From Chloroflexota bacterium (GTDB lineage Bacteria > Chloroflexota > Anaerolineae > UBA1429), in the NCBI GenBank assembly GCA_021372475.1, contig JAJFUJ010000162.1:15173-79172 (forward strand): 64,000 nucleotides of DNA. The letters run 5' to 3'. Positions 1-50,322 of the stretch are shown here, in pieces. Position 1 is the first letter of the stretch, and each line of letters starts with the position of its first letter. Under the pieces are notes generated by a model that worked only from the letters and a program-made list of their open reading frames with translations, ran no database searches and was not told where the DNA came from. The position numbers and the translations under genes are program-made.

Positions 1-103
1 TTATCATAACAATTTTCTCAGTGCACATAGAGGGAGGAAGATTGTAATCCCCGGGCATGGATATGCGCCAGAGTGGCTCATCCCTTTGCTGTATGATATA
101 GTG

Positions 104-141
104 AAAGCGCCTGCTGCGGCAATAGCCGCAGCAGGCGCTTT
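104..141. terminator. Perfect 17-bp GC-rich inverted repeat (AAAGCGCCTGCTGCGGC-aata-GCCGCAGCAGGCGCTTT), likely a bidirectional intrinsic terminator downstream of htrA
   Basis: Read directly: perfect stem with a 4-nt loop and flanking A/T runs on both strands, about 60 nt past the htrA stop (minus strand). Confidence 0.5.
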
Positions 142-201
142 CTCGTTCTATCTTGATCTAGGGGGCCAATCTGCACATAGTTGCCCCTTTGTCTCGTTTA
201 C

Positions 202-1452
202 CTATGATGAACGCGCGTCCAAAGTGACGGATACCTGTAACGATTGCCCATTACGCAGAACTGTTAGTTCTACTGTCTGACCAACTTCAGTATAGCGCGC
301 CAGGTAGCTAATCAAATCATCGTACTTGTTTACTACAGTACCGTCTATCGCAGTAATGATATCGCCGTCTGTCGGCACCTGGCCGCCGAGGACCGTCTTG
401 GTTTGAGTGCTGGGATGCAGGCCAGCCTCATCCGCTGGGCTGCCGGGTGTAACTTCTACCACCATTACACCTCTTTGGGTAGATGGCAAACCGAGAGCTT
501 CGGCGATTGGCTGGCTGATAGTAAAGGTTGTGATTCCCAGCCTGGGATGTTGGTAAACGCCGTTTGTAATCAGTTGTGGGACTACCTTTTTTACAATGTT
601 GGATGGAATGGTAAAACCCACACCTGCTGAGCTCTGTGAAGAAGACTCGATAGCAGCGTTCACACCAATTACCTCACCGGACAAGTTCAACAAGGGTCCG
701 CCAGAGTTGCCTGGGTTAATCGCAGCATCGGTCTGGATAATATCGGGAATGGTATAGACGGATGCTGATGTTGAACTGCTGCTAGCAGGTATCGTCCTGC
801 CTAGTGCACTTACGATACCAGAGGTCATCGTTCCTTCCAAGCCAAATGGGTTGCCGATGGCGATAACCTGCTGCCCGACGCGCACCTGGTCGGAATCACC
901 AAGCGTCAGCGGAGCAGCGTTAACGCCGTCCCTCTCCACCTCTAGAACAGCCAGGTCGCTATCGGGATCTGCCCCTATCACCTTGGCAGGCAGAGTCGTA
1001 TCATCGGAAAAGGTCACATACACCAACTCTGCCCCGGCAATGACGTGGTTATTGGTAACAATGTGCCCCTGGTCATCATAGACAAACCCCGAGCCTTCCC
1101 CTACCTGGTAGGTAGGTGTATCCGATGAATTGACGGTAACGGCTTGAGATGCTACGCGGATATTCACGACCGATGGATTTATGCGCAGGTACAGCGCTTC
1201 CAAACCGGTAAGGTCTTCGGGTAACGGCGTCGGAGCTGCTGTCGCTACCGTAATGGCGGTATTTTGGGTTGTCCTTGTTGGCTGACTAGTGGAAGCAGAT
1301 TGAACCTGGGTTGTCTGTTGGCGCTCCGCCTGGTTCACTATGCGCGACAGCGTATTGACTCCTACGCAGCCGGATAGCATTAACGAGACAATCAAAATGA
1401 GCGTTAGCGTAACCGATGAGCTGATAATCGAACGACGCATATCAACCTCCAA
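202..1452 (-). CDS. htrA: Periplasmic trypsin-like serine protease with C-terminal PDZ domain (HtrA/DegP family)
   Basis: N-terminal TM/signal sequence. S1C catalytic region GSGFVYDDQGHIVTNNHVIAGA and GNSGGPLLN. C-terminal PDZ segment (GVMVVEVTPGSPADEAGL...GDIITAIDGTVV). Confidence 0.88.
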   Translation of the reverse strand: MEVDMRRSIISSSVTLTLILIVSLMLSGCVGVNTLSRIVNQAERQQTTQVQSASTSQPTRTTQNTAITVATAAPTPLPEDLTGLEALYLRINPSVVNIRVASQAVTVNSSDTPTYQVGEGSGFVYDDQGHIVTNNHVIAGAELVYVTFSDDTTLPAKVIGADPDSDLAVLEVERDGVNAAPLTLGDSDQVRVGQQVIAIGNPFGLEGTMTSGIVSALGRTIPASSSSTSASVYTIPDIIQTDAAINPGNSGGPLLNLSGEVIGVNAAIESSSQSSAGVGFTIPSNIVKKVVPQLITNGVYQHPRLGITTFTISQPIAEALGLPSTQRGVMVVEVTPGSPADEAGLHPSTQTKTVLGGQVPTDGDIITAIDGTVVNKYDDLISYLARYTEVGQTVELTVLRNGQSLQVSVTLDARSS

Positions 1453-1712
1453 ACTGACTATGAGTACTTCTGTATAAAAAACGTTACCTTATCGATGATT
1501 ATTCGAAGTAAACTCGTTTTCTTCTCGCAATCAGCGGGGGACAGTTGACCAGCAAGTTATAGCAGGCCACTGCAAGGAGCTTTTTTATAGTTGCCCGAGG
1601 GTCAGAACCATGAAAGGTATAACTCAAGCAAGGTATGGCAAGCAAGGTTTCCCCAGATAGCTGGCTACTTAAAGTCATTTATAAACAGCCTCTTCTCAAA
1701 ACGAGCACTCTA

Positions 1713-1721
1713 TGTTATAAT
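1713..1721 (+). promoter_or_regulatory. Extended -10 element TGtTATAAT with a weak -35 (TTCTCA, 1693-1698) upstream of the small zinc-ribbon gene
   Basis: TATAAT at 1716-1721 preceded by TG at 1713-1714, in an AT-rich intergenic region. Confidence 0.35.
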
Positions 1722-1832
1722 AAGAGTGAGCTCGTAGTATTTGCATATTTATAATACCATTCAAGTAACGGATACTCTCAGGTTAGGTTGGTCGGTGTCT
1801 ATTTATCTCTCATGACGTCGAGGAGGATGAAC

Positions 1833-2021
1833 ATGGACGGGCAAACTACAACACCTCAGATGGTCCACCTCAAGGAATGCCCCAAATGCGGCCGCAGCAA
1901 CCTAGCAGATGCCCGCTATTGTGAAGGATGCGGCGCCAATATCAAAGATGTTGAAGCCAAGATTGCCGCACCCGAAAAGAAAAAGGGGCTATTAGCCAAG
2001 TTATTTGGTCGCGAGTCCTAG
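1833..2021 (+). CDS. Small zinc-ribbon protein (about 62 aa)
   Basis: CPKCG...x11...CEGCG zinc-ribbon motif. GGAGG RBS at 1822-1826 lies 6 nt upstream of ATG 1833, so the ORF-track start at 1788 is likely over-extended. A terminator hairpin follows. Confidence 0.55.
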   Translation: MDGQTTTPQMVHLKECPKCGRSNLADARYCEGCGANIKDVEAKIAAPEKKKGLLAKLFGRES

Positions 2022-2040
2022 CATTCGGCTCCTGATAGGT

Positions 2041-2086
2041 AGGATGCACGCTTAAGCCGTCATCTTCAAGTGTGCATCCTTTTTGT
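2041..2086 (+). terminator. Rho-independent terminator (AGGATGCAC ... GTGCATCCT + TTTTTG)
   Basis: 9-bp inverted repeat followed by a T-run, immediately after the zinc-ribbon ORF stop. Confidence 0.5.
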
Positions 2087-2200
2087 CTTGTAATGGTATA
2101 TTCCACACGTCCGCAATTTTCCCCGTTTAGCAGTTCTCCTGCCCCTTGACCGTTTGGTTTTTTAGCGTTAGCCTAATGCTATTCAACCTGGAGGTTAGCG

Positions 2201-3358
2201 ATGAAAATCAAGTCGATCGAGTGTTTTACCCATCAGCAGGCACCTCGCCAGTTATCAGGAGCCAGACGCCCGGCCTGGGTGGCTGACGCCGAAGTGGCCA
2301 ATCCAATGAGCAAATTCGCTGAATACAAACGTTACCGCTCTTCATGGCTGCCCACATGGCCCGGTTTTTGGGTCAAGGTGACTGCCGAGGATGGCACATA
2401 TGGGCTGGGACCATGTTCCTTTGGCCGCGCAACCGCAGCCATCATCCAGGATCATTTTGCCAAGTTGTTGGTCGGGCAGGAAGCCCTGGCTATCGAGCGC
2501 CTATGGGATATGATGTTCCGCATGTCCAAACCGTATGGCACTGTCGGCCTGGCTTCATCAGCTATCAGCGGCGTTGATCTGGCATTGTGGGACCTGGCAG
2601 GGAAAATCCAGAGCAAACCCGTTTATGAGCTGCTGGGCGGTAAAATGCGCGATAAGATCTTCACCTACGCCACCGGCAATGATGTTGACTGGTATATGGA
2701 GTGTGGATTCAAGGCCGTCAAGCTGGCTTGCCCATACGGGCCAAGCGATGGAGTTTGGGGCATCGACCAAAACGAAAAACTGGTCGCGGAAACACGTTCA
2801 CTCGTCGGCAATGACGTGGAGATAATGCTCGATTGCTATATGGCTTTCGATGTCGAATATACGGTGCGGCTCGCCGAGCGCCTGCGCCCGTACCGGTTAA
2901 AATGGATTGAGGAATTCTTGATTCCGGAGGACCTTGATGGACATGTCGCTGTACGCGAGCGTATCCCGTGGCAGACGCTGGCAACCGGCGAGCACATGTA
3001 CACTCCATGGCCGTTCCAATGGCTGATCAAGCATCGCGCGCTGGACATCCTGCAGCCAGATATGAATTGGGTGGGGGGCATCACAGCATGCCGGCGCATA
3101 GCCGAGATGGCCGATGTAGCCGGCCTGACGGTAATCCTGCACGGCGGCGCGATGTCACCCTATGGCACTCATTTGACCATCGCAATGCCCAATATGCCGT
3201 GGGGTGAGTATTTTGTCGGCACAGCTCCCGGCATTCCGCTGGCCGAGGGGCATAGTTACGACGGCTCACTGGCCCCGATAGATAGCTACGTCACCGTCAG
3301 CGATACCCCTGGCTTTGGCGTGGATATACCGAGCGAACAGCTCATTCCATTCAACTGA
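2201..3358 (+). CDS. rhmD: Enolase-superfamily sugar-acid dehydratase, L-rhamnonate dehydratase (RhamD/YfaW)-like
   Basis: Blocks matching E. coli YfaW: ANPMSKF, ISGVDLALWDLAGK, LKWIEE, DILQPDMNWVGG. GGAGG RBS at 2189-2193. Confidence 0.75.
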   Translation: MKIKSIECFTHQQAPRQLSGARRPAWVADAEVANPMSKFAEYKRYRSSWLPTWPGFWVKVTAEDGTYGLGPCSFGRATAAIIQDHFAKLLVGQEALAIERLWDMMFRMSKPYGTVGLASSAISGVDLALWDLAGKIQSKPVYELLGGKMRDKIFTYATGNDVDWYMECGFKAVKLACPYGPSDGVWGIDQNEKLVAETRSLVGNDVEIMLDCYMAFDVEYTVRLAERLRPYRLKWIEEFLIPEDLDGHVAVRERIPWQTLATGEHMYTPWPFQWLIKHRALDILQPDMNWVGGITACRRIAEMADVAGLTVILHGGAMSPYGTHLTIAMPNMPWGEYFVGTAPGIPLAEGHSYDGSLAPIDSYVTVSDTPGFGVDIPSEQLIPFN

Positions 3359-3384
3359 GCGGCTTAGACAGGGCAGCGCACAAG

Positions 3385-6093
3385 CTAGTGCGCTGCCCTG
3401 TCTATCAACGCCAAGATGCTGCTGCCGGCAATCGGCACGCAAACAGAAATGCCTGGTTCGATTGTATGCGGCGCATAATAGCGCCGAGTCAATTCATCGA
3501 CCAGCGCGTTTATCGCGCTTGCATGCGCTAATACCATCATACAGCCGCCTAATCCGGCGCCGGCCAACTGAGCGCCGGCAACCTGAGGGATGTTTCTGGC
3601 GATATCGACCATCCAATCTATCTCGCGCGTGCTGCAGCGGTAGGAGCCGGGTTGAAGCTCCAACCGGGCTCGCTCGCTGCGGAGCAGGTCACCCGACGCG
3701 CTATCATCAATGAGAGCCTGCAAATACGCATCGCTAATCGGCGCTTGATAGGGCGCCTCGGCGCCATCCTGCGTATGCGCGACCACCCGATCACCGTTAT
3801 GGGAGATCTTCATCAGTTCGCCAAATGACTGCACCTGCCCTGAGGCTAGCAGCTCAACCCCGTAGCGGCTGCGCTCACATTCTGCCAGGCCGAACAGTAC
3901 CACCCCGCGAACAGGCAGCGGATACGTTGAAGTGCCCAAGGCTGCCAAAACTGAAGCTAATTCAGAGGCAGGCAAAGAGTCGGCGAGTTCCTCCCGTGAG
4001 ATACTTATCGGCAGGGACAACAATATCTGGTACAGCGAGCTCAAGGGGATGCGCAGATTGCGGACATTGACATCGCGCAGGTGCTCTAATAACGGCGCAT
4101 ACTGTGGATAGTTATGCTTGATAAGCAGCAGGCCAGCTCGGTAACAAGCGATACGCTGGTTGAATATCTCGCGCGCTTCCTGCGATTTACGCGCCTGAAT
4201 CCGCGAATCGCACACTACTAGGTGATAGCCAGGCGGAAAGTCGACCAGCCGCTTGACGCCGAACGGAAAGAACGTGACCTGGGCTACTTTGCCGCGCTGA
4301 CCGTACTTGATTGCCGCATGGTCGGCGCTGCCGCCGCGCGTGCCAACGAACCATTCCCCTTCTCCGGCTAAATCAATAAATTGTTCGGGCTGGATATCAA
4401 GCCTATTGACTGCGCTCATCGCCTCAAGGGTTGCGACGACAAGCGCTGAAGAAGAAGAGAGCCCGGCAGCAATCGGGATATTCCCATGAACATACAAGTC
4501 CATTCCATTAAGGGCTCGGTCGCGATAGTGTTTCTGCAGCCGCAGCACTGCCGCTTTGACGTACTGGCTCCAGTCTCCGTGCGCCGACCGTGACATCTCG
4601 AGAACCGCTGGGCTGTTGACTAATGACATCCAGTCATCCCAAGGTAACAGACTGACAAGCTCAGCAATCGAAAACTGAGTTTCCTTAAACTCCCCGCCAT
4701 TTACATTATGTAGTGTTATGATGTCATCCCGGCGCGGATGCACCACCGCAAGTATTTCGCGGTCGATAGCCAGCAGATTGCAGATGCCGCCCTGATGGTC
4801 GATATGGCGTCCCAGGATGTTCGCACGACCGGGTGAACGTACAACAGCTACTTGCGGGTCGCCCGTTGAATGCCTCCAGCAAAAGTGCAGCAATTCGGTC
4901 AGAGCACGTCGGCGTTCGTTCAACAATAGCTGGTCGCTGCCGTAGGCATGCGTGAACTCATTGGCGAGGCTAGTTGACAACGAGCTATTAACTCCGGAGC
5001 GGCCAACAGGTGTGAGTGCATCCAACCAACGGGATACCGGCCAGAAGTGCTCAGTAGGTCGAGTGATGACCAGAGCAGCCTGCTTTTTTGCACGGTAATA
5101 TGCTTCGACGGCCAGTAATTCCGCGGGATTATTGTAGCCCAACACCCGGCGTGAGTCCTGCACATAAAGTGTCCGCACGCTCCGGCCAGCCTGGACTAGG
5201 ATGTTGACGACATCGGACAAGTATTCCTCATGCTGTGCGTTATCGGTACTCAGATGATCCAATGCATATTGTAAAGCAGAGGCTCTGAGCAGATATACTG
5301 AAACGTTAACCTGGGTAATTTGTGCTACCTGCTGCGGCGACATGCTCACATTGCCGGCATTAGCCGTTTTGAACATAAATGAATCAGGTTTGCCATCCAG
5401 CAGTTCGTTCCACTCCTGTCGGGATAATTCCTCCGCCGTTTGCAGCCTTGTCCACAGGTCATTGAAGGTAACTTGCACTTTATCGGCGGGGGTGTGTTCC
5501 TGCAGGAGAGCCGTGGCTTCAGCGCGGGTCGGCGGCTGCCCGGCGGCTAATTTTTGCCTCAGTGCTAAGTAAGCCTCACGCTGCCACACATCCCGCATCT
5601 CGACGACACCGAGTGTCTGTCCGGCGCCATTTACAACAACCCGCCCTTGTTCGGATTCCAGAGAGCGGGAGGTTGAGACAAATGCCAAATCGCAGGCACT
5701 CGCATAATACAGCTCGTAGAGCTGCTCCAATACCTGCTGCTCCACGATGCGATCGCCTGCTACTAGCAGCAGGTCGGCATCCCCATCCAGCAACACGCTA
5801 TCGAGCGCCCGCAGGCCGATGCGTGCAGCATCGCCAGTGCCGCGTTGTTCAGCCTGATAAGCATAGATGATGCCGGAATGTTCCTGAGCTATCGTTTGCA
5901 TAACCTGGCTGGCTAGTGCGCCAACAACGACAATCGGATAAGCGATGCCGGAAGCTCGATAGATTTCAATGACGCGGTTAATGACCGGCCGACCGTCAAC
6001 CAGGAAGCAGACTTTATGCTGGGTAGCTGAGCCCATACGCGTACCTTTGCCTGCGGCCAAGATCAGGACGTATCGAGGTTTTGTACAAGGCAT
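3385..6093 (-). CDS. Bifunctional sugar-1-phosphate nucleotidyltransferase / GHMP sugar kinase (Fkp-like L-fucokinase / NDP-sugar pyrophosphorylase architecture)
   Basis: N-terminal YVLILAAGKGTRMG nucleotidyltransferase motif. GHMP-kinase motifs PGRANILGRHIDHQGG, HGNIPIAAGLSSSSALVVA and GAGLGGCMMVLA. About 900 aa. Start placed at the internal ATG (MPCTK...), which has an AAGGGG RBS and avoids overlap with the upstream gene; the ORF-track start at 6186 is rejected. Confidence 0.7.
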   Translation of the reverse strand: MPCTKPRYVLILAAGKGTRMGSATQHKVCFLVDGRPVINRVIEIYRASGIAYPIVVVGALASQVMQTIAQEHSGIIYAYQAEQRGTGDAARIGLRALDSVLLDGDADLLLVAGDRIVEQQVLEQLYELYYASACDLAFVSTSRSLESEQGRVVVNGAGQTLGVVEMRDVWQREAYLALRQKLAAGQPPTRAEATALLQEHTPADKVQVTFNDLWTRLQTAEELSRQEWNELLDGKPDSFMFKTANAGNVSMSPQQVAQITQVNVSVYLLRASALQYALDHLSTDNAQHEEYLSDVVNILVQAGRSVRTLYVQDSRRVLGYNNPAELLAVEAYYRAKKQAALVITRPTEHFWPVSRWLDALTPVGRSGVNSSLSTSLANEFTHAYGSDQLLLNERRRALTELLHFCWRHSTGDPQVAVVRSPGRANILGRHIDHQGGICNLLAIDREILAVVHPRRDDIITLHNVNGGEFKETQFSIAELVSLLPWDDWMSLVNSPAVLEMSRSAHGDWSQYVKAAVLRLQKHYRDRALNGMDLYVHGNIPIAAGLSSSSALVVATLEAMSAVNRLDIQPEQFIDLAGEGEWFVGTRGGSADHAAIKYGQRGKVAQVTFFPFGVKRLVDFPPGYHLVVCDSRIQARKSQEAREIFNQRIACYRAGLLLIKHNYPQYAPLLEHLRDVNVRNLRIPLSSLYQILLSLPISISREELADSLPASELASVLAALGTSTYPLPVRGVVLFGLAECERSRYGVELLASGQVQSFGELMKISHNGDRVVAHTQDGAEAPYQAPISDAYLQALIDDSASGDLLRSERARLELQPGSYRCSTREIDWMVDIARNIPQVAGAQLAGAGLGGCMMVLAHASAINALVDELTRRYYAPHTIEPGISVCVPIAGSSILALIDRAAH

Positions 6094-6103
6094 AGGCGCC
6101 CCT

Positions 6104-7939
6104 TTATACTTCGAAGCGAATTTTGACGCCTTCCAACCGCAGGCGCTGCACCAGCTCAGCCGAAGTGCTGCACAGGAGCGCTTCATCGATCATGCGTCTG
6201 GATTTCTCGATCGACCAATCCTGGAGCAGCCTGGCGATGGGCTGAAGGCGATCTACTGCCACGCTGAGCTTGATGCCTAAACCGCTCAACAGCAGCGCCT
6301 CTGGCCATTGCCCTGCCAAGACCCCGCAGACAGTCACCGGTTTCCCGCCTGCCTGGGCCATGCTGGCTATCCTGGACATGCAACGCCAAAAGGCAGGCTG
6401 CAGCCCGATACGCCCATCGAGTGTTGAAGCGCTCTCGCGGCTTTGGGCGAACATGAGCGCACCCAGGTCATTGCTACCGATACTGATAAAATCAGCTTCA
6501 GCCACCATTTCATCCAGGCACCAGACCATCGCAGGCACTTCGAGCGAAATCCCGAGTGGGAGATTCACCCGCGTACTGAGATAGCTTTCCACTGCGCGCT
6601 GCTCTTCCCTCAGGTAACTGCGCGCTGCCCGCCATTCCTGGGTGGTTCGCACCAGAGGAAGTAATGCCTGCAAATCATGGCCGATGCTGGCCCGCAGTAA
6701 TGCTCTGAACTGCACCTGCAGCATCGCCGGATTCTTGAGGATGAACGCCAAACCTCGTTTGCTGACCTCATCGCTATATGGCATGCCGGGGGTCAGGTCC
6801 GCGAGCCGAATAGTTACCGGCCTTTTGCCGCTAGCCGCCAGCAGCCCGTCTAGCTGGCGCGTCTGTTCCCCTTCATCCAACGAACTCGAACCAATATAGA
6901 ACACCTCGCTGCGCACCAGGCCGATGCCCGCAGCGCCGGCTGCTATTGCTGCCTTGACCAGCTCGCTGCTGTCAGCATTCGCCAGCAATCCCAGATGTGT
7001 CGCCGAAGCTCCCAGCGTTGGGAGCGCCGAACTGCTCCTTGCCGAGATCGGTTCGATCACTGCCTCATCGCGGACAGTGCCTTCCTGGCCATCTACAACC
7101 AGGTTATCGCAGGCAGCCATCTCTTCGAGGTCCGCAGGCTTGAAGCCGCTAACCATCGGTATCCCGAGCCAGCGCGCAGCAATCGCGGTGTGAGATGACT
7201 CGCCGCCCTCACAAGTGATAACAGCACGAATCCAACGCGCCTGCGAACCGAGTAAATGGGCGAGCAGCACCCGGTATCCCATCAGCACAAGTCCCTTATG
7301 GGCGGCAGGTTCTGCTTGTACCTGGCGCATTGCCGCGAATAAGCGCTGGCTCAGGTCCGCCAGGATCTCAGCGCCGGGAGCATTCTCAGCCGCAGGGGAT
7401 AAGACTAGATCAGCGGTGAGTCGTTCATCTGCCAGGAGCTGCCGCTCTGCGCTGACCAGCTCGATCAGGTCACCCGCGCCAATCGCGTGTAGCATCTCTT
7501 CCTCTACGGCAAGCTCTTCATCAACCCTCGAGCGCGCCAAGCTCCAATCCGGGTTTGCCTCCGGCTCAGCAGCTCCAAGATTCGGCAGTTCTCCGCCGAT
7601 ATACTCACTCGGCCACCAGGGGGCTCCGCTACCTACGCCAGGCACCAAACCGTTCGCGTTCCAATGGCGCGCCTGCTGCTGTTCAGAGCCCAGGAGCAGG
7701 ACGATAGAATCCAGCACGGATTGCGGCGTGTCCTGCGCAGCGACCAATTCAACCGTATCGCCGCAAGCGAGCGCCAACTGCAGCAGCGCGAGGGGGCTGC
7801 TGGCATCGGCTGTGCCGCGCGAGCCCACTACCTGGAGCTGCGCCTGGGCTGCCCGGACGATACCCGCAAGGCGAACTGCGATACGCGCATGTACCCCCTG
7901 CGGCGCCCTAACCACCAATTTACGTCTGATTTCGCCCAT
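6104..7939 (-). CDS. ptsI: Multiphosphoryl transfer protein: HPr domain fused to PEP-protein phosphotransferase (Enzyme I)
   Basis: N-terminal HPr-like segment (KLVVRAPQGVHARIAVRLAGIV, with the active His in GVHAR). EI phospho-histidine region GGESSHTAIAARWLGIPMVSG. EI PEP-binding region SIGSNDLGALMF. Confidence 0.78.
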   Translation of the reverse strand: MGEIRRKLVVRAPQGVHARIAVRLAGIVRAAQAQLQVVGSRGTADASSPLALLQLALACGDTVELVAAQDTPQSVLDSIVLLLGSEQQQARHWNANGLVPGVGSGAPWWPSEYIGGELPNLGAAEPEANPDWSLARSRVDEELAVEEEMLHAIGAGDLIELVSAERQLLADERLTADLVLSPAAENAPGAEILADLSQRLFAAMRQVQAEPAAHKGLVLMGYRVLLAHLLGSQARWIRAVITCEGGESSHTAIAARWLGIPMVSGFKPADLEEMAACDNLVVDGQEGTVRDEAVIEPISARSSSALPTLGASATHLGLLANADSSELVKAAIAAGAAGIGLVRSEVFYIGSSSLDEGEQTRQLDGLLAASGKRPVTIRLADLTPGMPYSDEVSKRGLAFILKNPAMLQVQFRALLRASIGHDLQALLPLVRTTQEWRAARSYLREEQRAVESYLSTRVNLPLGISLEVPAMVWCLDEMVAEADFISIGSNDLGALMFAQSRESASTLDGRIGLQPAFWRCMSRIASMAQAGGKPVTVCGVLAGQWPEALLLSGLGIKLSVAVDRLQPIARLLQDWSIEKSRRMIDEALLCSTSAELVQRLRLEGVKIRFEV

Positions 7940-9622
7940 CTAGATGACTCCTGTGAAGCCGGCAATGAAACCAACTACCGATATCCCCAGCACAACCCAA
8001 GTGGGCTTAATGCGGTGTTTGAGTACCCACAAACATAGCAGGCACATCCCCAGCACGAGCGCTTGCGGCACAAGCGCATCCAGGATACCCTGCAGGGGCA
8101 CCACTTGGCTGCCCAGGTTCAGGGTCACCAGCAGGTTCAGGGGAACCGCCCGCGCTAGCAGAACGCCCAACATCACACTGCCGACCAACTCCAGGCTTGC
8201 GAGCCACTGCTGCCAAGCTCCTGATGCGATGCGCCGCTGAATCAATGACCGGCTACCCCGGTAACCTGCCATGTAACTCAACGCACCTACTCCCCAAATG
8301 CTGATAGCCACCATCAGGGTGTAGATAACCGGCCCCAGTAAACCAACCTGGCGAGTCAATCCAATCCCTAGCATCAGAGCGAGTGGGATCCAGGTCCCCT
8401 GGATAAGCGAATCGCCGATGCCAGAGATCGCTCCCATCAACCCTATTTTGATAGCATTGACTGTATTGTAGTTTGGTTCGGCTTCGCAAGCTTGTTTCTC
8501 CTCCATAGCTGCGACCGTACCGATAACAAAGGCCCCTAGGTTAGGCTCGCTATTGAAGTAAGTAATATGCCTATTAAGAGCTTCTGCTCGTTCCCTTTGG
8601 TTAGGGTATAGACGGTTGATAATCGGGATCATGCTATGAGCAAAACCCAAACCCTGCATACGTTCATAGTTATAACTGGCATGCGAAAAGAACAGCCAAT
8701 TGAGCCATGAGACGGCCAGATCCCTTCGCTTCAACTTACGCGGGAGATACGGGGCATTGGCATCCGTTTCAGGAGCTGCCGTCTGAGCCGTAGGCTGCAC
8801 GAGCCAGGCGATGCACGCTGCTGCAAGCGCCAGAGCCAACAAAGGCCAATCGGTCAACGCCGCAACCAAAAAGCCAAGGATGAACCAGGCGCCATTACGC
8901 CCGTGCCACAACAGAGTCAGGCTATAAGCTAGGCCCACTATGGGCAATACAGCGCCCGCACCGGAGAGACCTTTAAGCAGCCAGGACGGAATCTGCGCCA
9001 GGTTCTGGCTGAGCCAGGCAGGTCCCCAATAGACGGCGGCTGCGCAAGGTAGCAGGCTGATCAATACAAGCAGCGCCTGCGGCGCGAGCACATTGCACCA
9101 TACCCAGGCTTTGGTGTTACCCTGGCTCGCCAGATATTCAGCCCACCTGACGAAAACAACATCCAGCGACATACGCAGTTGATAAATGAGGTATCCCAGA
9201 ATACCGACCGGTACAGTCAGAGCCAGGGCGGCCTCAGCATCCAGGCCACCACCCAGCGCCAACGCCGTGCCGAGGTATCCGGCCAACGAGATATCGCTGG
9301 GAAGCGAACCGCCGGCAGCAACAAAACCGAGATAAGCCAGGTTTATCGTTGCGCCGATCTGCGCGCCTTCCAACGGCGCTCCCAAAATAAGCCCGACTAA
9401 TGTGCCGCCAACCAATGGCCGGTACAACGTAAAAAAGCCAATGCCCGCAACCCAAGCGCTCTGCGACAGGTAATAACACAGGCCAATAAGGAAAGCCGCC
9501 AACAAACTAATCGGGCGGGTTGGCGTTGCGTCGGCAGCATGGCTGAGCAAACCCGGGGCGGCAAGCGATACGCCGCCAAGCAGGGCCAGCCAGGCCGCTA
9601 CCCAGCGGAATCTGGGCGCCAT
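7940..9622 (-). CDS. PTS mannose/sorbose-family EIIC-EIID fusion permease
   Basis: N-terminal half resembles ManY (RPLVGGTLVGLILGA). C-terminal half resembles ManZ (SYNYERMQGLGFAHSMIPIINRLYP, GLMGAISGIGDSLIQGTW, WVVLGISVVGFIAGF). The start is uncertain: the ATG at 9622 overlaps the IIB stop by 25 nt, and the ORF-track start at 9754 is probably too far upstream. Confidence 0.75.
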   Translation of the reverse strand: MAPRFRWVAAWLALLGGVSLAAPGLLSHAADATPTRPISLLAAFLIGLCYYLSQSAWVAGIGFFTLYRPLVGGTLVGLILGAPLEGAQIGATINLAYLGFVAAGGSLPSDISLAGYLGTALALGGGLDAEAALALTVPVGILGYLIYQLRMSLDVVFVRWAEYLASQGNTKAWVWCNVLAPQALLVLISLLPCAAAVYWGPAWLSQNLAQIPSWLLKGLSGAGAVLPIVGLAYSLTLLWHGRNGAWFILGFLVAALTDWPLLALALAAACIAWLVQPTAQTAAPETDANAPYLPRKLKRRDLAVSWLNWLFFSHASYNYERMQGLGFAHSMIPIINRLYPNQRERAEALNRHITYFNSEPNLGAFVIGTVAAMEEKQACEAEPNYNTVNAIKIGLMGAISGIGDSLIQGTWIPLALMLGIGLTRQVGLLGPVIYTLMVAISIWGVGALSYMAGYRGSRSLIQRRIASGAWQQWLASLELVGSVMLGVLLARAVPLNLLVTLNLGSQVVPLQGILDALVPQALVLGMCLLCLWVLKHRIKPTWVVLGISVVGFIAGFTGVI

Positions 9623-10089
9623 ACTAGCGGCAGGTCGTGGTAGCGTGCCTGAATTATGATATTTAAACCGCATGCCGTGAGCGATCGCAGCACCTCCTTT
9701 TCTGAAGGCGACAGGTACACCTGAGCGGAGACGCGTTGGCGTCCGGTGCGCCATCCCAGGGCACCAAGCATAACCACCTCTGGATTATAGCCGGCACTCA
9801 GCAATAGCTGCAGCTCTTCCAGGCTCGGAAGCAGCACCAATACGGCGTTCTCGTCGCTGCGCTGCCACAAGTATTCCGCCGCGTCCCGCGCATTGCCTAT
9901 CCATAATTGATAGCGTTCAGCCAGAGCCGAACGCACAAGCGCCCTTTGGCCGTCATCCAGCGACTCGTGGACGACCATCACGCACACCGGATCGAGATAG
10001 CGCAGCCAGTCGAAAATCACTTGGCCGTGAACAAGACGGTCATCCACACGCACCAATACCCGACCAGCAGGCGACATGATATTCCTCAA
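9598..10089 (-). CDS. PTS mannose/sorbose-family EIIB
   Basis: VLVRVDDRLVHGQVIFDW matches the IIB(Man/Sor) IDDRLIHGQV phospho-histidine motif. 163 aa. Confidence 0.75.
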   Translation of the reverse strand: MRNIMSPAGRVLVRVDDRLVHGQVIFDWLRYLDPVCVMVVHESLDDGQRALVRSALAERYQLWIGNARDAAEYLWQRSDENAVLVLLPSLEELQLLLSAGYNPEVVMLGALGWRTGRQRVSAQVYLSPSEKEVLRSLTACGLNIIIQARYHDLPLVWRPDSAG

Positions 10090-10536
10090 CTAGCGGATGC
10101 CTTCCGGCAAGAGGTGGATATCATGCACTGCCGCCTGCAGAACGCGCCTGGCTAAAACATCCAACGACTCGGTTCGTGCTGAACTCACGCATGCCTCCAA
10201 GACCATTGCCAGGTTCATACCGCTCAATACGACAGCTCTATCTTTCCAGGGCGGGACACCGGCTATCTGCGAGGCAATCTGCCAGGGAGTCCCACCATAT
10301 ATATCGGTTAGCACAAGAAATGAAGCCTGCGGACCCAAAGCTCGCATCGTCTCAAGGAGCCGATCGTATAAATAGCTCGGATTATCCGCTCCATCCAAAT
10401 CGAACGCCTGCAGTAGTTGGCCAGATCCCACTATTACCTCCGCAGCACACTTATATGCTGCCGCCAGGCCGGAATGGGCAACCAGGATTATATGAAACAA
10501 GATTTTGTTCTCCACATAAATCAGCCAGCCCAACAC
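10090..10536 (-). CDS. PTS mannose-family EIIA
   Basis: ILFHIILVAHSGLAAAYKCAAEVIVG...LTDIYGGTPWQIASQI resembles the ManX IIA domain (GTHGWAAE...DTWGGSPFN). The ORF extends to 10689, but the first roughly 55 codons are low-complexity with no homology, so the true start is probably an internal GTG/TTG near 10515-10536. Confidence 0.65.
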   Translation of the reverse strand: MLGWLIYVENKILFHIILVAHSGLAAAYKCAAEVIVGSGQLLQAFDLDGADNPSYLYDRLLETMRALGPQASFLVLTDIYGGTPWQIASQIAGVPPWKDRAVVLSGMNLAMVLEACVSSARTESLDVLARRVLQAAVHDIHLLPEGIR

Positions 10537-10759
10537 GATAGGAGCTCCCCTTGGCCGCGGAGATGCTTCCCTTGCATCTGTCGCCCCATCCCTTTCAGGA
10601 GCTACGTCGTCGATATCAAGCAAGGGCGCGCCAGGGGATATATGGAAATGCAGCCACCCATCTACAGAGCATCCATCCCTTTCAGCCATTCCCTATGGTT
10701 ATTCTAGCATCAGGTAGTTGGTATGGCAACGCTTCGTTATGCATTTAGGGCGTGGATGT

Positions 10760-10810
10760 AAGCTTGATAATTGAACAATTTTGATTATTATGATATCAGA
10801 TATTAGCCTC
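10760..10810. promoter_or_regulatory. AT-rich divergent promoter region between the PTS operon (minus strand) and murA (plus strand)
   Basis: A 50-nt AT-rich block with several -35/-10-like hexamers (TTGATA, TTGAAC, TATTAT, TATTAG) inside an otherwise GC-rich intergenic region. Confidence 0.35.
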
Positions 10811-10853
10811 ACAGTTAGCGTCTAGCCTGCAATCTGGGCGACACCAAGGTGGG

Positions 10854-12188
10854 ATGATGCCATTTGTAATTGAAGGGGGACATCCGCTGAGCGGGTATGT
10901 GGATGTTGAAGGTGCTAAGAACGCTGCATTACCTATTATAGCTGCTACTTTGCTCACCGCTGACGAGTGCTTGCTGGAGAATGTGCCTTTCATCGAGGAT
11001 ATTCGGACTATGCTCAAGGTGCTGCACCACCTGGGGGTGGCTGCTCGTTTCGAGGGCCCCAATACGCTGCGCATAAAGGCAACCCGCATCTCCAAGGCCT
11101 ATTTGCCGGCCGATTTAGCTAAAGCGATGCGTGCCAGTTTCCTGGTTGTCGGCCCGCTGCTCAGCCGCTTTGGCCAGGCCGAAGCGCCGCATCCGGGCGG
11201 CTGCAGCATCGGCATCAGACCTGTCAGCGTGGACTTGCAGGGATTTCAGCATATGGGCGCTGAAATCAATATGTCGGATGTCAACTATGTCATTCGGGCG
11301 CCCGGGCTGCATGGCGAGCGCTTAATACTGGATTATCCCAGCCATACCGGTACCGAGAACGTCATTATGGCCGCTTGTTTGGCCGAGGGCACCACAGTTA
11401 TAGAGAATGCCTCCATCGAACCCGAAGTTGCAGACCTGATTTCCTTTTTATGCGCGATGGGGGCGCGTATCTCTGGCGCCGGCACCAGTACGCTGCACAT
11501 CGAAGGCACTGGACGTCTGCACGGCGCTTGCTTCAGGGTGATGCCCGACCGTATGGTAGCTGGCACTTATATACTTGGTGCGCTTGTCTCCGGCGGTGAT
11601 GTGGCAATGAGCGGTGTTGTCGCGCCGTATCTTGGGGCGCTATCGAACAAGCTGCAGGAAGCTGGCGCCGAGGTTTACATCAGCCAGAACGAATATCGCG
11701 TGCGCTATGTACAGCCGCTGCGGGCGGTAGATATACAGACCTACCCGTACCCTGGATTTCCAACGGATTTGCAGGCCCCTTTCACCACCGTGATGACTCA
11801 GGCGGAGGGCGATAGCTCTACCGCCGAAATGATGTTCGACGGACGGCTTCAATACGTGGACCAGCTCAAGCGTATGGGCGCAGCTATCGATATACTCGAT
11901 AACGGCCGCCGTGCTATAGTACACGGCCCTACAAGGCTCAAAGGAGCTGAAGTGCAGGCACTGGATATCCGTTCCGGAGCGGCCATGGTGATGGCCGCAC
12001 TGGCCGCCGAGGGTCAAACCACGATAAGCAATGTCACCTATATTGACCGAGGGTACCAAGATATAGACAAGCATCTCACCAGCCTAGGCGCGGTTATTTC
12101 CCGCAGCGCTGAAGAAGAACACTGCTGCCCTCCTAGCGATTCGAGCGAACCTGTTGAATGGTCCGCAATAAGTGAACTCAAAAACTAG
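10854..12188 (+). CDS. murA: UDP-N-acetylglucosamine 1-carboxyvinyltransferase
   Basis: EPSP-synthase fold start MMPFVIEGGHPLSGYVDVEGAKNAALPIIAA. Catalytic Cys context GGCSIGIRPV. AGGTGGG RBS. Confidence 0.9.
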   Translation: MMPFVIEGGHPLSGYVDVEGAKNAALPIIAATLLTADECLLENVPFIEDIRTMLKVLHHLGVAARFEGPNTLRIKATRISKAYLPADLAKAMRASFLVVGPLLSRFGQAEAPHPGGCSIGIRPVSVDLQGFQHMGAEINMSDVNYVIRAPGLHGERLILDYPSHTGTENVIMAACLAEGTTVIENASIEPEVADLISFLCAMGARISGAGTSTLHIEGTGRLHGACFRVMPDRMVAGTYILGALVSGGDVAMSGVVAPYLGALSNKLQEAGAEVYISQNEYRVRYVQPLRAVDIQTYPYPGFPTDLQAPFTTVMTQAEGDSSTAEMMFDGRLQYVDQLKRMGAAIDILDNGRRAIVHGPTRLKGAEVQALDIRSGAAMVMAALAAEGQTTISNVTYIDRGYQDIDKHLTSLGAVISRSAEEEHCCPPSDSSEPVEWSAISELKN

Positions 12189-12213
12189 ACTGCCCACGGG
12201 CTAACCGGCTCCT

Positions 12214-12244
12214 AGCCATCAATTGTGTACTGATGGCTTTTATG
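12214..12244 (+). terminator. Rho-independent terminator after murA (AGCCATCA-loop-TGATGGCT + TTTTAT)
   Basis: 8-bp inverted repeat followed by a T-run, 25 nt past the murA stop. Confidence 0.5.
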
Positions 12245-12281
12245 TTATGATTGCGTCCGATAAAAGGTTCGAGGAGGACCG

Positions 12282-13283
12282 ATGTTTGAAAAGCAGATAG
12301 GCATCGACCTCGGCACAGTCAATGTGCTGGTTTATGTGCGCGGCAAAGGCGTTGTGCTCAATGAGCCTTCTGTCGTCGCTATTTCACAGGTCGATAATCG
12401 GATCCTAGCGATTGGAAACGAAGCGCGCGCAATGCTGGGGCGCACGCCAGATACGATTGAGGTTGCCCGCCCCATGCGCAACGGCGTGATTGCCGATTAC
12501 GTCGTGACCGAGGCGATGTTGCGCTACTTTATCGGTAAAGTATGCAACCATTTTGAACGGCGCCCTGAGATTATGATCAGTGTGCCAGTCGGGGTCACCA
12601 GCGTAGAGAGCCGCGCCGTCAGAGATGCGGCTATTCAAGCAGGCGCTCGCATCGCTCATCTCATCCCTGAGCCGTTAGCTGCAGCTTTAGGCGCGAATAT
12701 GCCGATCGGCACGCCGACGGGCAATATGATTGTTAATATCGGCGGCGGTGCATCAGAGGCAGCAGTGATATCGATGTACGGTATCGTAGTATCCAACTCG
12801 GTGCGTGTAGCCGGTGAAAAGCTGGATGATGCTATCGCTGCATATATTCGTCGTAAGTACAATTTGATGATTGGCGAGAGCACGGCGGAACAAATCAAGA
12901 TAGAGATTGGTTCCGCCATTCCGCTTGATGAGGAAATGCGCCTGGAAGTGCGTGGCCGCGATCAGGTCGCCGGCTTACCCCGCACTATTACCATCACTTC
13001 TACTGAAGTGAGCGACGCGCTCTCCGAGCCGCTTGGCGTCATTGCCGCTACGGTTCGTACGGTACTGGAGAAGACTCCGCCCGAGCTTTCTTCCGACATC
13101 ATCGACCGCGGGATGGTCATTGTGGGGGGCGGGGCGCTGCTGCGTAATATCGACCGCTTCTTTACGCGCGAGACGGGTGTGCCCTGCCACGTTGCTGAAA
13201 AGCCGATGCTGTGCACGGCCCTGGGAGCTGGGCGCGGCTTGGAGTATCTACCGCTCATCCGCCGAGCAGTGGAGTCTACCTGA
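12282..13283 (+). CDS. mreB: Rod shape-determining actin homolog MreB
   Basis: [34 protein letters not shown] is the canonical MreB N-terminus. GGAGG RBS 5 nt upstream. Confidence 0.92.
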
Positions 13284-13316
13284 TTCCAGGAGCGCCAGGT
13301 CCCTCGAGAGAGCCTG

Positions 13317-13928
13317 TCAAGCCCAGTGCTGAGCGCGAATAAAATCATCTGCTGTGTTGATATTAAAGAACGAGATTAAGTGTGGATCATACAACTTAAT
13401 CTCGTTTTCGCTTACCTCGCGAATATTTTGCCCAGTATAAAAACTGATAACGCGCATCTTGTTCTGAGCAATGGCCGTGCGTAACGACGGGACTACCTTA
13501 CGGTGATAAAGCGCATGAAACGGCTCCAGGCCAACCGACAGCTTGGGCACAACTATCGTATATTCCTGTCGAAGGCTCAACATATAGCGTACCAGTGGGA
13601 GCTGGATGAACGGCATATCACAGGCCATGAGGAAGACCCAATCATTGCGGGCGTGCTCCAGCCCCACAAAGATGGCCGGCAATACTCCTCTGTTGCCAGG
13701 AGGATCGTGAACGACTGCCGCGCCCTTTACTGTGATATCTTGGTCAGCGCGCGCCACACAAATAACATCATCGCTGAGTTGCAGTGCGGTAGAGACACCC
13801 CTTTGGATAAGCGGGACGCCCTCCAGCAGCAGGGTTGCTTTATCCTGGCCGATACGTTCACCGCGCCCACCTGCAAGAATAACGATGCTGACAGGTAACT
13901 CAGGCGATGAGTAATTCTGAATATTCAC
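13317..13928 (-). CDS. mobA: Molybdenum cofactor guanylyltransferase (MobA-like NTP transferase)
   Basis: VSIVILAGGRGERIGQDKATLLLEGVPLI and MACDMPFI motifs. Confidence 0.75.
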   Translation of the reverse strand: MNIQNYSSPELPVSIVILAGGRGERIGQDKATLLLEGVPLIQRGVSTALQLSDDVICVARADQDITVKGAAVVHDPPGNRGVLPAIFVGLEHARNDWVFLMACDMPFIQLPLVRYMLSLRQEYTIVVPKLSVGLEPFHALYHRKVVPSLRTAIAQNKMRVISFYTGQNIREVSENEIKLYDPHLISFFNINTADDFIRAQHWA

Positions 13929-13960
13929 ACTATCATCCGCGGCAGTGACTAGTAATAGAT

Positions 13961-14000
13961 ATGAAAATAAAGGATGCCCTTGCGATGAATCGGGGCATCC
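13961..14000 (-). terminator. Rho-independent terminator downstream of the ACP gene (GGATGCCC ... GGGCATCC, T-run on the minus strand)
   Basis: 8-bp inverted repeat at 13972-13979 / 13992-13999, with an A-run on the plus strand at 13963-13970 (a T-run on the minus strand). Confidence 0.5.
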
Positions 14001-14030
14001 TAGATCCCTAAGTGATGTTCAACCGCGAAG

Positions 14031-14267
14031 CTAACCCAGTTTTTTCTCTGCCAGATTTACGACATCTGCGACGGTAACGACATCCTTGGTCTCATCCTCG
14101 CTAATCGTAAAACCAAACTCATCCTCAAGGTCGTTCAACAGCTCAACCAGATAGAGCGAGTCTACTTTGAGATCCTCGCGCAGTTTGGCGGTAGGAACGA
14201 CTTCTTCAGGCTTTACCTGCAGCCGATCCACGATAATCTTCTGAACGCGCTCAAACGTAGTGCTCAT
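14031..14267 (-). CDS. acpP: Acyl carrier protein (78 aa)
   Basis: Phosphopantetheine-attachment context LKVDSLYLVELLNDLEDEFGFTISEDE (DSL motif). Monocistronic, with its own terminator. Confidence 0.8.
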   Translation of the reverse strand: MSTTFERVQKIIVDRLQVKPEEVVPTAKLREDLKVDSLYLVELLNDLEDEFGFTISEDETKDVVTVADVVNLAEKKLG

Positions 14268-14422
14268 TAGCCCTCCTAACCTGGTAAAAGAATGTGTTTG
14301 GCAGCAGATTCAGCCTATTATAACATCCGCGGATATGGGAGTCAATCATTCGCCTAAACCTGCGCTGCATTTCTTAACACTCTATCTGGCAATTGGTTAC
14401 GCGTTTCGTCGAATATGAATCA

Positions 14423-14451
14423 TTGACACAGCTTCGTATTCCAAGTAAAGT
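14423..14451 (+). promoter_or_regulatory. Sigma-70-like promoter for idi: -35 TTGACA (14423-14428), 17-nt spacer, -10 TAAAGT (14446-14451)
   Basis: Consensus -35, a plausible -10, then a GGAGGA RBS at 14466-14471 and ATG at 14476. Confidence 0.4.
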
Positions 14452-14475
14452 CATTATGTTATGCGGAGGAATAGG

Positions 14476-15492: not shown

Positions 15493-15504
15493 GGTGGTTG
15501 TAGG

Positions 15505-17217: not shown

Positions 17218-17230
17218 GGAGTATTGAACT

Positions 17231-18406: not shown

Positions 18407-18411
18407 CTGTG

Positions 18412-19899: not shown

Positions 19900-20005
19900 A
19901 GTACCACTCCCAATGGCTAGTTGTTCTCAATCTCGGATTTACAATAAGGTTAATCGTATTCTGACATTTCGTCAACAGGATGATTGTTCTCCACTGGCCG
20001 ACAAC

Positions 20006-39802: not shown

Positions 39803-39822
39803 CGTATCTTGGGAGTTAAGGC

Positions 39823-40281
39823 ATGAAAAAGAAGCGTATCGTGATCCACGAGGAATACTGCATCGGCTGCCGGCTGTGCGAGGTGCACTGCCTGGTGCAG
39901 CACAGCAAGTCCAGGGATATCGTCAAAGCCTTCAAAGAAGAACGCTCCAGTACGATGGCCCGCGTCATGGTGGAAGAGAGCGGCCCGGTTTCGTTTGCCT
40001 TACAGTGCCGCCAGTGCAGCGAATCCAACTGCCTCGAAGCCTGCATCTCAGGCGCTATGCACCGCGATCCGGAGACTGGCGCCGTAGTCTGCGACGAGAG
40101 CAAATGTGTGGGCTGCTGGATGTGCATCATGGTCTGCCCGGCCGGCGCAATCCGCCAGAACCTGACCGGTACGCACATCGCCAGCAAATGCGACTTGTGC
40201 TACGGCTCTGCTATGCCGGCCTGCGTGCTAAACTGCCCCAATGAGGCTTTGACGTATGAAGAAGTGGAAGTGAGGGACTAA
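39823..40281 (+). CDS. 4Fe-4S dicluster ferredoxin-domain protein (GOGAT electron-transfer subunit)
   Basis: CIGCRLCEVHC and CVGCWMCIMVCP cluster motifs. Confidence 0.75.
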   Translation: MKKKRIVIHEEYCIGCRLCEVHCLVQHSKSRDIVKAFKEERSSTMARVMVEESGPVSFALQCRQCSESNCLEACISGAMHRDPETGAVVCDESKCVGCWMCIMVCPAGAIRQNLTGTHIASKCDLCYGSAMPACVLNCPNEALTYEEVEVRD

Positions 40282-40284
40282 CCC

Positions 40285-41562: not shown

Positions 41563-41574
41563 GAGGTATGAGCA

Positions 41575-50194: not shown

Positions 50195-50322
50195 TTGGGC
50201 ATCTTGCACAAATACTCGCCGGCTATACTGTCATACTTGCCCGATGTGAAAGCGTTTCGAATCGTATATATTCTTTAGCGTAACTTGCCTTACGCGCCAT
50301 GCTGCAATGGGGAGTTGCTGTA

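Follow-up and report, generated by a model that had tools for sequence, protein, structure and literature searches.

The 64,000-nt stretch of DNA analysed here (the window; contig JAJFUJ010000162.1 of the Chloroflexota assembly GCA_021372475.1, positions 15,173 to 79,172) carries near its beginning five co-directional minus-strand genes. The listing of open reading frames (ORFs) and profile searches assigned them to EIIA-Man, EIIB-Sor, a fused EIIC-EIID (EIICD) and a fused HPr-Enzyme I (HPr-EI) of a phosphotransferase system (PTS), and to a 902-amino-acid (aa) nucleoside triphosphate (NTP)-transferase/GHMP-kinase. The coordinates of these genes and of the features around them are given in Table 1. 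The original prediction, which was made from the DNA letters without database searches, had described the same five genes with gaps of 0–25 nt. The genes and their order stood, while the junctions read off the sequence turned out to be gaps of 0–12 nt or, in one case, an overlap of 25 nt. The ATG of EIIB follows the EIIA stop after 12 nt that include a GAGG Shine-Dalgarno (SD) sequence, the 3' end of EIIB and the start of EIICD overlap by 25 nt, the ATG of HPr-EI directly abuts the EIICD stop, and the ATG of the 902-aa enzyme follows the HPr-EI stop after 10 nt with an SD-like sequence (AGGGGCGCCT). The ORF starts at 6186, 9754 and 10689 were over-extended, and the true genes are shorter. Promoter-like sites were no more numerous in the region than in shuffled sequence, and within the operon they were seen solely upstream of EIIA. 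Since the junctions are tight with SD-like sequences and a single promoter-like site lies upstream, the PTS genes and the kinase/pyrophosphorylase gene are probably carried on one transcript, as had been proposed.

Table 1. Window positions of the operon genes and of the features next to them
Feature	Position	Strand	Evidence and remarks
PTS EIIA, mannose family	10090..10689	-	Pfam PF03610; ORF of 199 aa, domain at aa 67-177
PTS EIIB, sorbose/mannose type	9598..10077 (ORF call to 10089)	-	Pfam PF03830; GAGG SD 6 nt before ATG
Fused PTS EIIC-EIID permease, 560 aa	7940..9622	-	PF03609 (EII-Sor) and PF03613 (EIID-AGA)
Fused HPr-Enzyme I, 611 aa	6104..7939	-	PF00381, PF00391 (PEP-utilizers), PF02896 (PEP-utilizers_C)
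Bifunctional protein, 902 aa	3385..6093	-	NTP_transferase and GalKase_gal_bdg/GHMP_N/GHMP_C (Pfam)
Promoter-like site	10701..10729	-	TTGCCA-17 nt-TAGAAT, with TG, upstream of EIIA ORF; candidate operon promoter; consensus match only
Near-perfect palindrome (20-nt arms)	3365..3404	both strands	17-bp hairpin between fusion and enolase genes
Enolase-superfamily sugar-acid dehydratase, RhamD group	2201..3358	+	Both MR_MLE domains; separate convergent unit
Zinc-ribbon protein, 62 aa	1833..2021	+	CPKCG...CEGCG; upstream of enolase, same strand
murA (UDP-GlcNAc 1-carboxyvinyltransferase)	10854..12188	+	NCBIfam 515 and 498 bits, above cutoffs; context gene

The proposal of a complete mannose-family (Man-family) PTS made of four polypeptides with fused components was borne out: all domains are present, and all the phospho-transfer residues checked are intact. 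In the long EIICD ORF, PF03609 was matched at aa 85–317 (183 bits) and PF03613 at aa 340–603 (239 bits), and the gene product corresponds in length and start to NCBI MCE5259516.1. The conserved domain of EIIA starts near a GTG at ~10515 (MENKILFHIILVAHSG), and the first 58 codons of its ORF, which show no conservation in relatives, are probably a leader. If this 5' extension (10516–10689) is untranslated, it would make an operon leader of ~175 nt. An Rfam scan of positions 1–14500 at E <= 0.1 gave no match, and no riboswitch or leader RNA was thus recognised there. Alignments with relatives (L081, L087 and L088 for EIIA) and with Escherichia coli ManX showed that the phospho-His of EIIA in 'VAHSG', corresponding to ManX His10, and that of EIIB in 'DDRLVHGQV', a His instead of a Cys and corresponding to ManX His175, are invariant. 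A IID of the PF03613 family, a IIC of the EII-Sor family (PF03609), an EIIB with an active His and an EIIA-man His together define a mannose-family Enzyme II. The NCBIfam models specific for individual PTS substrates (AgaF, AgaW, ManZ and others) all scored under their cutoffs; the best among these weak matches were AgaF for IIA (58 bits, cutoff 130) and AgaW for IIC.

The HPr domain of the HPr-EI protein has the motif 'GVHAR' in its translation, which was judged against the canonical motif around HPr His15 and is kept in the aligned relatives with an HPr domain. In the EI part, an alignment with EI structures (2hro) places 'GGESSHTAIAAR', 'SIGSNDL', and 'VCGVLAG' at the catalytic His and Cys. 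Similarity to solved EI begins at about EI residue 128, and PF05524, the helical HPr-binding subdomain of EI, gave no match for the window protein or for the five relatives closest to it. The alignment nevertheless showed that this subdomain is shortened yet present at aa ~86–189, with two deletions in the window protein compared with other Anaerolineae HPr-EI proteins. Other HPr-EI fusions of Anaerolineae match PF05524 weakly.

The 902-aa enzyme is identical to a protein (P0001) from a metagenome-assembled genome (MAG) of a 'Chloroflexi bacterium'. Pfam confirmed that it is a nucleotidyltransferase/GHMP-kinase fusion of ~900 aa, as had been claimed. Its N-terminal half (aa ~5–340) is a GlmU-type sugar-1-phosphate nucleotidyltransferase, which matches NTP_transf_3, NTP_transferase and GlmU, aligns across the whole pyrophosphorylase domain of GlmU, carries the GlmU signatures LAAGKGTRM, QAEQxGT, DNAQxEEYL, and GxNN, and contains a helical insert of ~80 aa at 175–253. 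The NCBIfam models of GlmU gave 120–135 bits against cutoffs of 367–718. No hexapeptide-repeat match of the left-handed β-helix acetyltransferase domain of GlmU was found with Pfam, and a GHMP kinase takes its place. This C-terminal half (aa ~415–900) is an anomeric sugar kinase of the GalK/GALK2 type. By sequence it is closest to human GALK2 (E = 3e-26, compared with 1e-15 for galactokinases), and a Foldseek search with the kinase fold of the fairly confident AlphaFold model (pLDDT 81.7) gave 2a2c as the best match with a target TM of 0.80. The kinase keeps motif II as PIAAGLSSSSA and its catalytic 'GGSADH', and the four best galactokinase models of NCBIfam gave 101–120 bits against cutoffs of 227–499. 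The label 'N-acetylgalactosamine kinase' in the JGI annotation is an automatic name only. The enzyme had been called Fkp-like. This holds for the domain order, with a C-terminal GHMP kinase in the same polypeptide, and does not hold for the family: PF07959 (Fucokinase) gave no match at E <= 0.01, Fkp was absent from the top 50 Foldseek matches, and the two halves are of the GlmU type and the GALK2/GalK type, respectively. Fkp is a protein of similar size (~900–950 aa). A literature search, limited in coverage, found no paper on a bacterial fusion of GlmU and GalK types.

The sugar-binding signature of the kinase half is PGRANILGRHIDHQGG in the window enzyme and PGRVNIIGEHIDYCGY in GALK2. In the motif GRHIDHQGG, Arg430 occupies the place where GalK and GALK2 have Glu, and this Arg is invariant across the whole family. 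The same motif has 'HQGG' instead of the 'Y(N/C)xG' of GalK and GALK2. The Glu of the GalK motif, which we take to lie near the C6 hydroxyl of the sugar, is presumably Ala in the galacturonokinase (GalAK) of Arabidopsis and other plants. Since Arg replaces this Glu, the C6 group of the substrate may be anionic or differ in some other way. The Arg, together with KduD/IolB neighbours of the fusion gene in other genomes, keeps an acidic sugar in play.

To see how the two parts of the operon are distributed, relatives of each were collected. A search with EIICD returned 215 relatives. One close relative (P0121) is 94% identical to the window protein. The best 120 are all fused proteins of 520–600 aa, and every named one among these 120 is from Anaerolineae, Anaerolineales or Chloroflexota. 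A metagenome scan added 80 further loci with a fused EIICD. In two Anaerolineae MAGs (L087 and L088), the EIIA-EIIB-EIICD-HPr-EI cassette stands in an entirely different neighbourhood, and a 3.07-Mb Anaerolineales chromosome (L089) has EIIB-EIICD-EI only, with no fused HPr domain and no called EIIA. Judged by these sequences, the fused EIIC-EIID cassette is typical of Anaerolineae, and the expectation that a complete PTS would be out of place in a Chloroflexota host was not sustained. A literature search of limited coverage found no paper on PTS in Anaerolineae/Chloroflexi or on natural IIC-IID fusions.

The fusion enzyme belongs to a family with 321 matches at 40–64% identity, nearly all of which are ~900 aa long and have both domains. 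In contigs of one-genome-per-species GTDB, it is found in Chloroflexota, Spirochaetaceae, Lentisphaerota/Victivallales, Planctomycetota, Verrucomicrobiota, and a few others. Within 10 kb of the fusion gene, no PTS gene, enolase or murA was present in any of the 80 GTDB loci, and no neighbouring family recurs in more than 6 of 83 loci, these recurrences being local synteny. Conversely, 29 fused-EIICD loci extend downstream for 5 kb or more, and only two of these, which are near-identical, carry the fusion enzyme. The pairing of PTS and enzyme was seen in about eight loci, namely the window, L081, L084, L085, L090, L091, and L094/L095. Where the flanks are visible (L081, L094, L095), it occupies a fixed site with mreB-murA on one side and the enolase on the other, and htrA follows the enolase in L081 and L094, where the sequence reaches that far. 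In a neighbour-joining (NJ) tree, the PTS-linked enzymes are monophyletic with long branches. Since there is a single clade and one site, the linkage would have arisen once, in a narrow lineage.

The genes near the fusion gene in other genomes include a GH20 hexosaminidase, a TviC/WbpP-like UDP-HexNAc(A) 4-epimerase, an LmbE-type deacetylase, a ROK protein and a sulfatase, and KduD/IolB were also found. The 4-epimerase gene lies near the fusion gene at L044:3029-4063 and in five other loci of Lentisphaerota/Victivallales. A second, stand-alone galactokinase-like gene with the motif 'GAHVDHQ' lies near the fusion gene in Victivallales (L057:13527-14870 and four other loci). A gene for a HAD-IIA (NagD-like) phosphatase directly follows the fusion gene in two Chloroflexota loci (L001:12753-13526 and L008:7321-8196), and in L086 and L092 the gene after it encodes a metallophosphoesterase. 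In L086, a sulfatase gene (L086:4523-5944) stands immediately downstream of the fusion gene.

At its 3' end the operon meets a second unit. The fusion gene and the enolase gene are convergent with their stop codons 26 nt apart, and the palindrome between them folds into a hairpin of −41 kcal/mol (z = −7.9) on either strand. The stop codon of the fusion gene sits in the loop, and there is no U-tract; the hairpin looks like a bidirectional terminator. The original prediction had placed the enolase divergently and within a sugar island, which did not hold, since it is part of a separate convergent unit beyond the hairpin. The enolase has the RhamD group as its best matches in the Protein Data Bank (PDB), with 249 bits for 2oz3/3ekg and further matches to 3fxg/2p0i. 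It scored 294 bits with the NCBIfam model of L-rhamnonate dehydratase, of which the cutoff is 393, and thus did not reach the equivalog level. The zinc-ribbon gene upstream is preceded by a promoter-like site at 1693–1721 and forms unit 2 with the enolase, outside the operon. L081 has a 62-aa counterpart at the corresponding position, with 81% identity to the window protein, and in L085 a zinc-ribbon gene of 62 aa was likewise called there. The zinc-ribbon gene and the enolase, which is 85–90% identical across the related loci, are far better conserved than the adjoining operon. On the other side, the gene that is truly divergent from the PTS operon is murA, with mreB next to it. MurA is 82–83% identical and at the same position in L081 and L094, and marks a conserved chromosomal site. 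We read the region as core Anaerolineae chromosome, in which two transcription units meet tail-to-tail at a strong hairpin.

The explanation of the whole that we favour, with restrained confidence, is one operon of two modules that are independent elsewhere, a PTS and a sugar-activating enzyme, which plausibly share a sugar of the Gal/HexNAc type. In the first module, we infer from the intact catalytic residues that phosphate would pass from phosphoenolpyruvate (PEP) to the His of EI and then through the His residues of HPr, EIIA, and EIIB to a hexose or hexosamine crossing the membrane, yielding a sugar-6-phosphate. With GalNAc/GalN (Aga) and mannose systems as the weak best matches, this PTS would be the general hexose/hexosamine uptake system of the lineage. 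In the second module, the GALK2-like half would phosphorylate the anomeric hydroxyl of a free sugar, and the GlmU-like half would then convert the sugar-1-phosphate and UTP into a UDP-sugar. With both reactions, a single protein would carry out salvage or a Leloir-like activation, and the most plausible substrate would be an N-acetylhexosamine or another galacto-configured sugar. The N-acetylhexosamine-like sugar is suggested because of the similarity to GlmU and GALK2 and the amino-sugar-flavoured neighbours elsewhere, and the 902-aa enzyme probably makes a UDP-sugar from a free amino sugar. In a small clade, the two modules would have become neighbours and been co-transcribed, and the likeliest link between them would be a shared substrate class. 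As the 6-phosphate, the sugar imported by the PTS would enter glycolysis; alternatively, after dephosphorylation, or upon entry in an unphosphorylated form, it would be converted to a UDP-sugar for envelope synthesis or 4-epimerisation. Such a split of one sugar between glycolysis and the UDP-sugar would be the most economical functional link. There are precedents for it: in Lactococcus lactis, galactose imported by PTS, including the mannose-family Ptn, is dephosphorylated and enters the Leloir pathway via a GHMP galactokinase, and in Streptococcus mutans, uptake by the Man-PTS is coupled to the Leloir route, which partly supplies UDP-galactose for the envelope (PMC6085457). It had been argued that the coupling of a PTS acting on O6 with a kinase acting on O1 implies a non-canonical route. 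This argument loses its force, since the modules are independent almost everywhere and the passage from a Man-PTS to a GHMP kinase is documented for galactose (PMC6085457).

Several points weigh against the favoured explanation. Every specific NCBIfam match, in both modules, is far under its cutoff; the invariant Arg speaks against plain Gal or GalNAc as the sugar; co-transcription is itself deduced from sequence; and neither the operon nor the 64-kb window contains a phosphatase, mutase, epimerase or amino-sugar catabolic gene that completes the pathway. Furthermore, synteny in the clade extends to murA, mreB, the enolase and htrA, so that the adjacency could be mere general synteny of fairly close relatives. 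An ancestral rearrangement may have put a stand-alone salvage gene behind the PTS operon, where it would be read through with no shared substrate or pathway. We regard such an incidental adjacency as possible though not probable, and it stays a serious rival because no phosphatase, epimerase or mutase to complete a pathway is encoded nearby. The independence of the two modules in nearly all other genomes speaks for it, and the synteny of the unrelated genes in the same genomes leaves the conserved adjacency with little weight. On the other hand, a spacing of 10–26 nt has been kept despite divergence to 48–64% identity in the fusion and 33–68% in HPr-EI, and in L090 the kinase half still stands directly behind HPr-EI after an N-terminal deletion, with its frame intact to the contig end. 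The two modules might also work in series, without a mutase: the 6-phosphate made by the PTS would be the substrate of the GHMP kinase, and the resulting 1,6-bisphosphate would be trimmed and uridylylated or uridylylated directly. In that case, the kinase half would be a sugar-6-phosphate 1-kinase with Arg430 binding the 6-phosphate, and the conversion of a hexos(amin)e-1,6-bisphosphate into a UDP-sugar would be the hexose counterpart of the HddA/GmhB/HddC heptose route. We consider both the route and this activity improbable. The invariant Arg in place of the Glu of 'GEH' in GalK could bind an anionic group if, as we take it, this residue lies near the C6 substituent, L090 retains the kinase half alone behind the PTS, and a phosphatase-type gene follows the fusion gene in four loci (L001, L008, L086, and L092). 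However, a uronic acid or a sulfated sugar would account for the Arg equally well, and the phosphatase neighbours amount to only two independent cases (L001/L008 and L086/L092), none of them in the window. A regular phosphatase follower of the fusion gene was therefore rejected as too little for a bisphosphate route. The route is rated low because lineages with no PTS seen next to the gene share the same invariant Arg, although GHMP kinases that act on O1 of a sugar with a distal phosphate do exist, namely the heptose-7-phosphate kinases WcbL/HddA (PMC4691232), of which the latter belongs to the parallel HddA/GmhB/HddC pathway to GDP-heptose.

The remaining rivals concern the history of the operon. 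Between the window and L081, identity is 90% for MreB and the enolase, 82% for MurA, 63% for HtrA, and 57% for a MobA-like protein, and it is 61% for EIICD, 60% for the fusion enzyme, 51% for HPr-EI, 42–44% for EIIB, and 35–38% for EIIA. Compared with L094, it is 92% for MreB, 83% for MurA, 85% for the enolase, 51% for EIICD, 48% for the fusion enzyme, and 33% for HPr-EI; MreB and MurA of L095 likewise lie within 83–92% of those of the window. The PTS/enzyme block is at the fast end of the range of the genome, most clearly in the soluble PTS proteins. An anomalously fast evolution of the block as a whole was toned down, because the non-core flanks are at 57–63% and only EIIA, EIIB, and HPr-EI are clearly lower. 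Recent horizontal acquisition of the island, which had been suggested from its compact and fused gene set, is the least credible of all the readings. The faster divergence of the block (EIIA 35–38%, EIIB 42–44%, HPr-EI 33–51%, fusion 48–60%) compared with MurA (82–83%) and MreB (90–92%) is a pattern that replacement of the cassette by recombination between relatives could give. However, HtrA and the MobA-like protein in the non-core flanks are as divergent; GC, GC3, and synonymous codon usage of the five operon genes are inside the spread of the 49 ORFs of the window, so that the comparison of composition proposed earlier revealed no anomaly; a tRNA scan of positions 1–20000 found none; direct and inverted repeats in the flanks were at chance level, save for the palindrome at 3365–3404; and no mobility-type Pfam domain was found among the window ORFs scanned. 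The named close homologues are all from Chloroflexota, and the same site is occupied in at least four related genomes with the same flanks. Nothing indicates horizontal transfer. It is also improbable that the operon is under relaxed selection and decaying in the clade. Such decay would fit the long branches in the NJ tree, the shortened HPr-binding subdomain of EI in which PF05524 is undetected, and the state of the fusion gene in some relatives. In L090 (L090:3618-4364, Logan ERR11532801_126658), of which HPr-EI is 68% identical to that of the window, the gene after HPr-EI encodes the kinase only: the nucleotidyltransferase half (the first ~327 residues) has been lost save for a short in-frame remnant, and a new ATG lies at about window residue 375. 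The fusion enzymes at L094:11301-13739 and L095:7167-9605 (48% identical to that of the window) lack the N-terminal insert of ~80 aa and have GKGARM for GKGTRM. Against this, the reading frames in the window are all intact, and so are the catalytic and phospho-transfer residues checked. Since the catalytic motifs are intact in the window and in the linked relatives, outright decay is unlikely. An apparent split of the fusion gene in L091 was ruled out as a frameshift, because it is a run of N in a scaffold gap.

The rest of the window is core chromosome with genes for glutamine synthetases, GlnE, carbamoyl-phosphate synthase, glutamate synthase, RecJ, DinB, and others. Positions 15505–18406 encode an [FeFe]-hydrogenase-like protein with a C-terminal PAS domain, an architecture of sensory hydrogenases, directly followed by a SpoIIE/PP2C-type phosphatase. 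A sulfatase with an N-sulphoglucosamine-sulphohydrolase-type C-terminal domain is encoded on the minus strand at 18412–19899, 12 kb from the operon, and is similar to the sulfatase of L086. A nitrogen-assimilation cluster at 38288–43493 and 50299–56833 comprises two glutamine synthetases, the GlnE adenylyltransferase and an archaeal-type split glutamate synthase, in which Glu_synthase, GATase_2, and GXGXG are separate genes.

The locus is a lineage-typical PTS joined to a widespread enzyme family in one small clade, which makes it a small curiosity rather than a pathway of a new kind. Its significance is modest, and current understanding is not overturned. The finding that Anaerolineae commonly carry a compact and self-sufficient Man-family PTS with a fused IIC-IID, and often with a fused HPr-EI, is useful for the metabolic reconstruction of these abundant, mostly uncultured fermenters in digesters and sediments. 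In addition, a large family of predicted one-polypeptide sugar-kinase/UDP-sugar pyrophosphorylases with an unusual invariant Arg is flagged in Chloroflexota, Spirochaetota, and the PVC phyla. Such enzymes, if the prediction is correct, would be attractive for one-pot synthesis of nucleotide sugars, and their substrate, which is the part most worth an experiment, would reveal an environmental sugar salvaged by these glycan degraders. Were the kinase half a 6-phosphate 1-kinase, this would be a new activity for a widespread family of ~900-aa enzymes. The clade-specific operon offers a natural test of a link between uptake by PTS and anomeric activation.

Among known systems, human GALK2 with UAP1/AGX1, NahK of Bifidobacterium with a pyrophosphorylase, and AmgK/MurU of Pseudomonas, in which an amino-sugar 1-kinase acts with a uridylyltransferase in salvage, share with the window enzyme the conversion of HexNAc via HexNAc-1-phosphate to UDP-HexNAc that is proposed here. 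The window enzyme differs in that both predicted activities are fused and in that Arg is present where GALK2 has Glu; NahK and AmgK have a different kinase fold. The window enolase shares with the RhamD group its best PDB and NCBIfam matches and both MR_MLE domains, and differs in scoring under the equivalog cutoff and in forming a convergent unit with a zinc-ribbon gene. Enzymes that join a sugar-1-kinase to a pyrophosphorylase are already well known, as represented by Fkp and by the zebrafish glucuronokinase/UDP-GlcA pyrophosphorylase (PMC3938481, PMC11982464). Bacteroides Fkp and plant FKGP, which are L-fucokinase/GDP-fucose pyrophosphorylases, and the zebrafish enzyme have in common with the window enzyme an N-terminal pyrophosphorylase and a C-terminal GHMP kinase for salvage by one polypeptide (PMC11982464, PMC3938481). 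In contrast to Fkp/FKGP, the N-terminal domain of the window enzyme is of the GlmU type, probably using UTP, and not of the PF07959 type, and its kinase is nearest to GALK2/GalK.

The fusion of HPr and EI in one polypeptide is known from multiphosphoryl transfer proteins such as FruB of Pseudomonas (IIA-HPr-EI) (PMC2405797). The window protein likewise has HPr fused to EI with the catalytic His residues and the Cys kept, whereas its order is HPr-EI without IIA, and the N-terminal helical subdomain of EI is shortened and undetected by Pfam. With the mannose-family PTS (TC 4.A.6; ManXYZ, AgaVWEF/AgaBCD), the window system shares the four domain families and the phospho-His residues of EIIA and EIIB. 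It differs in having IIC and IID in one polypeptide and IIA and IIB separate, whereas ManX is a IIAB protein, and in encoding HPr and EI, fused, within the operon. Unlike the Aga systems, it is accompanied by no Aga or Nag catabolic gene nearby among the ORFs scanned. The closest functional parallel to the explanation favoured here is the Man-PTS–Leloir route of Lactococcus and Streptococcus, which has the same sequence of Man-family import followed, as we propose for the window, by dephosphorylation, a GHMP anomeric kinase, and formation of a UDP-sugar (PMC6085457). In those bacteria, the genes do not form a single operon, and separate proteins provide the kinase and the uridylyltransferase, whereas in the window the kinase and the pyrophosphorylase are fused and their gene is probably co-operonic with the PTS.

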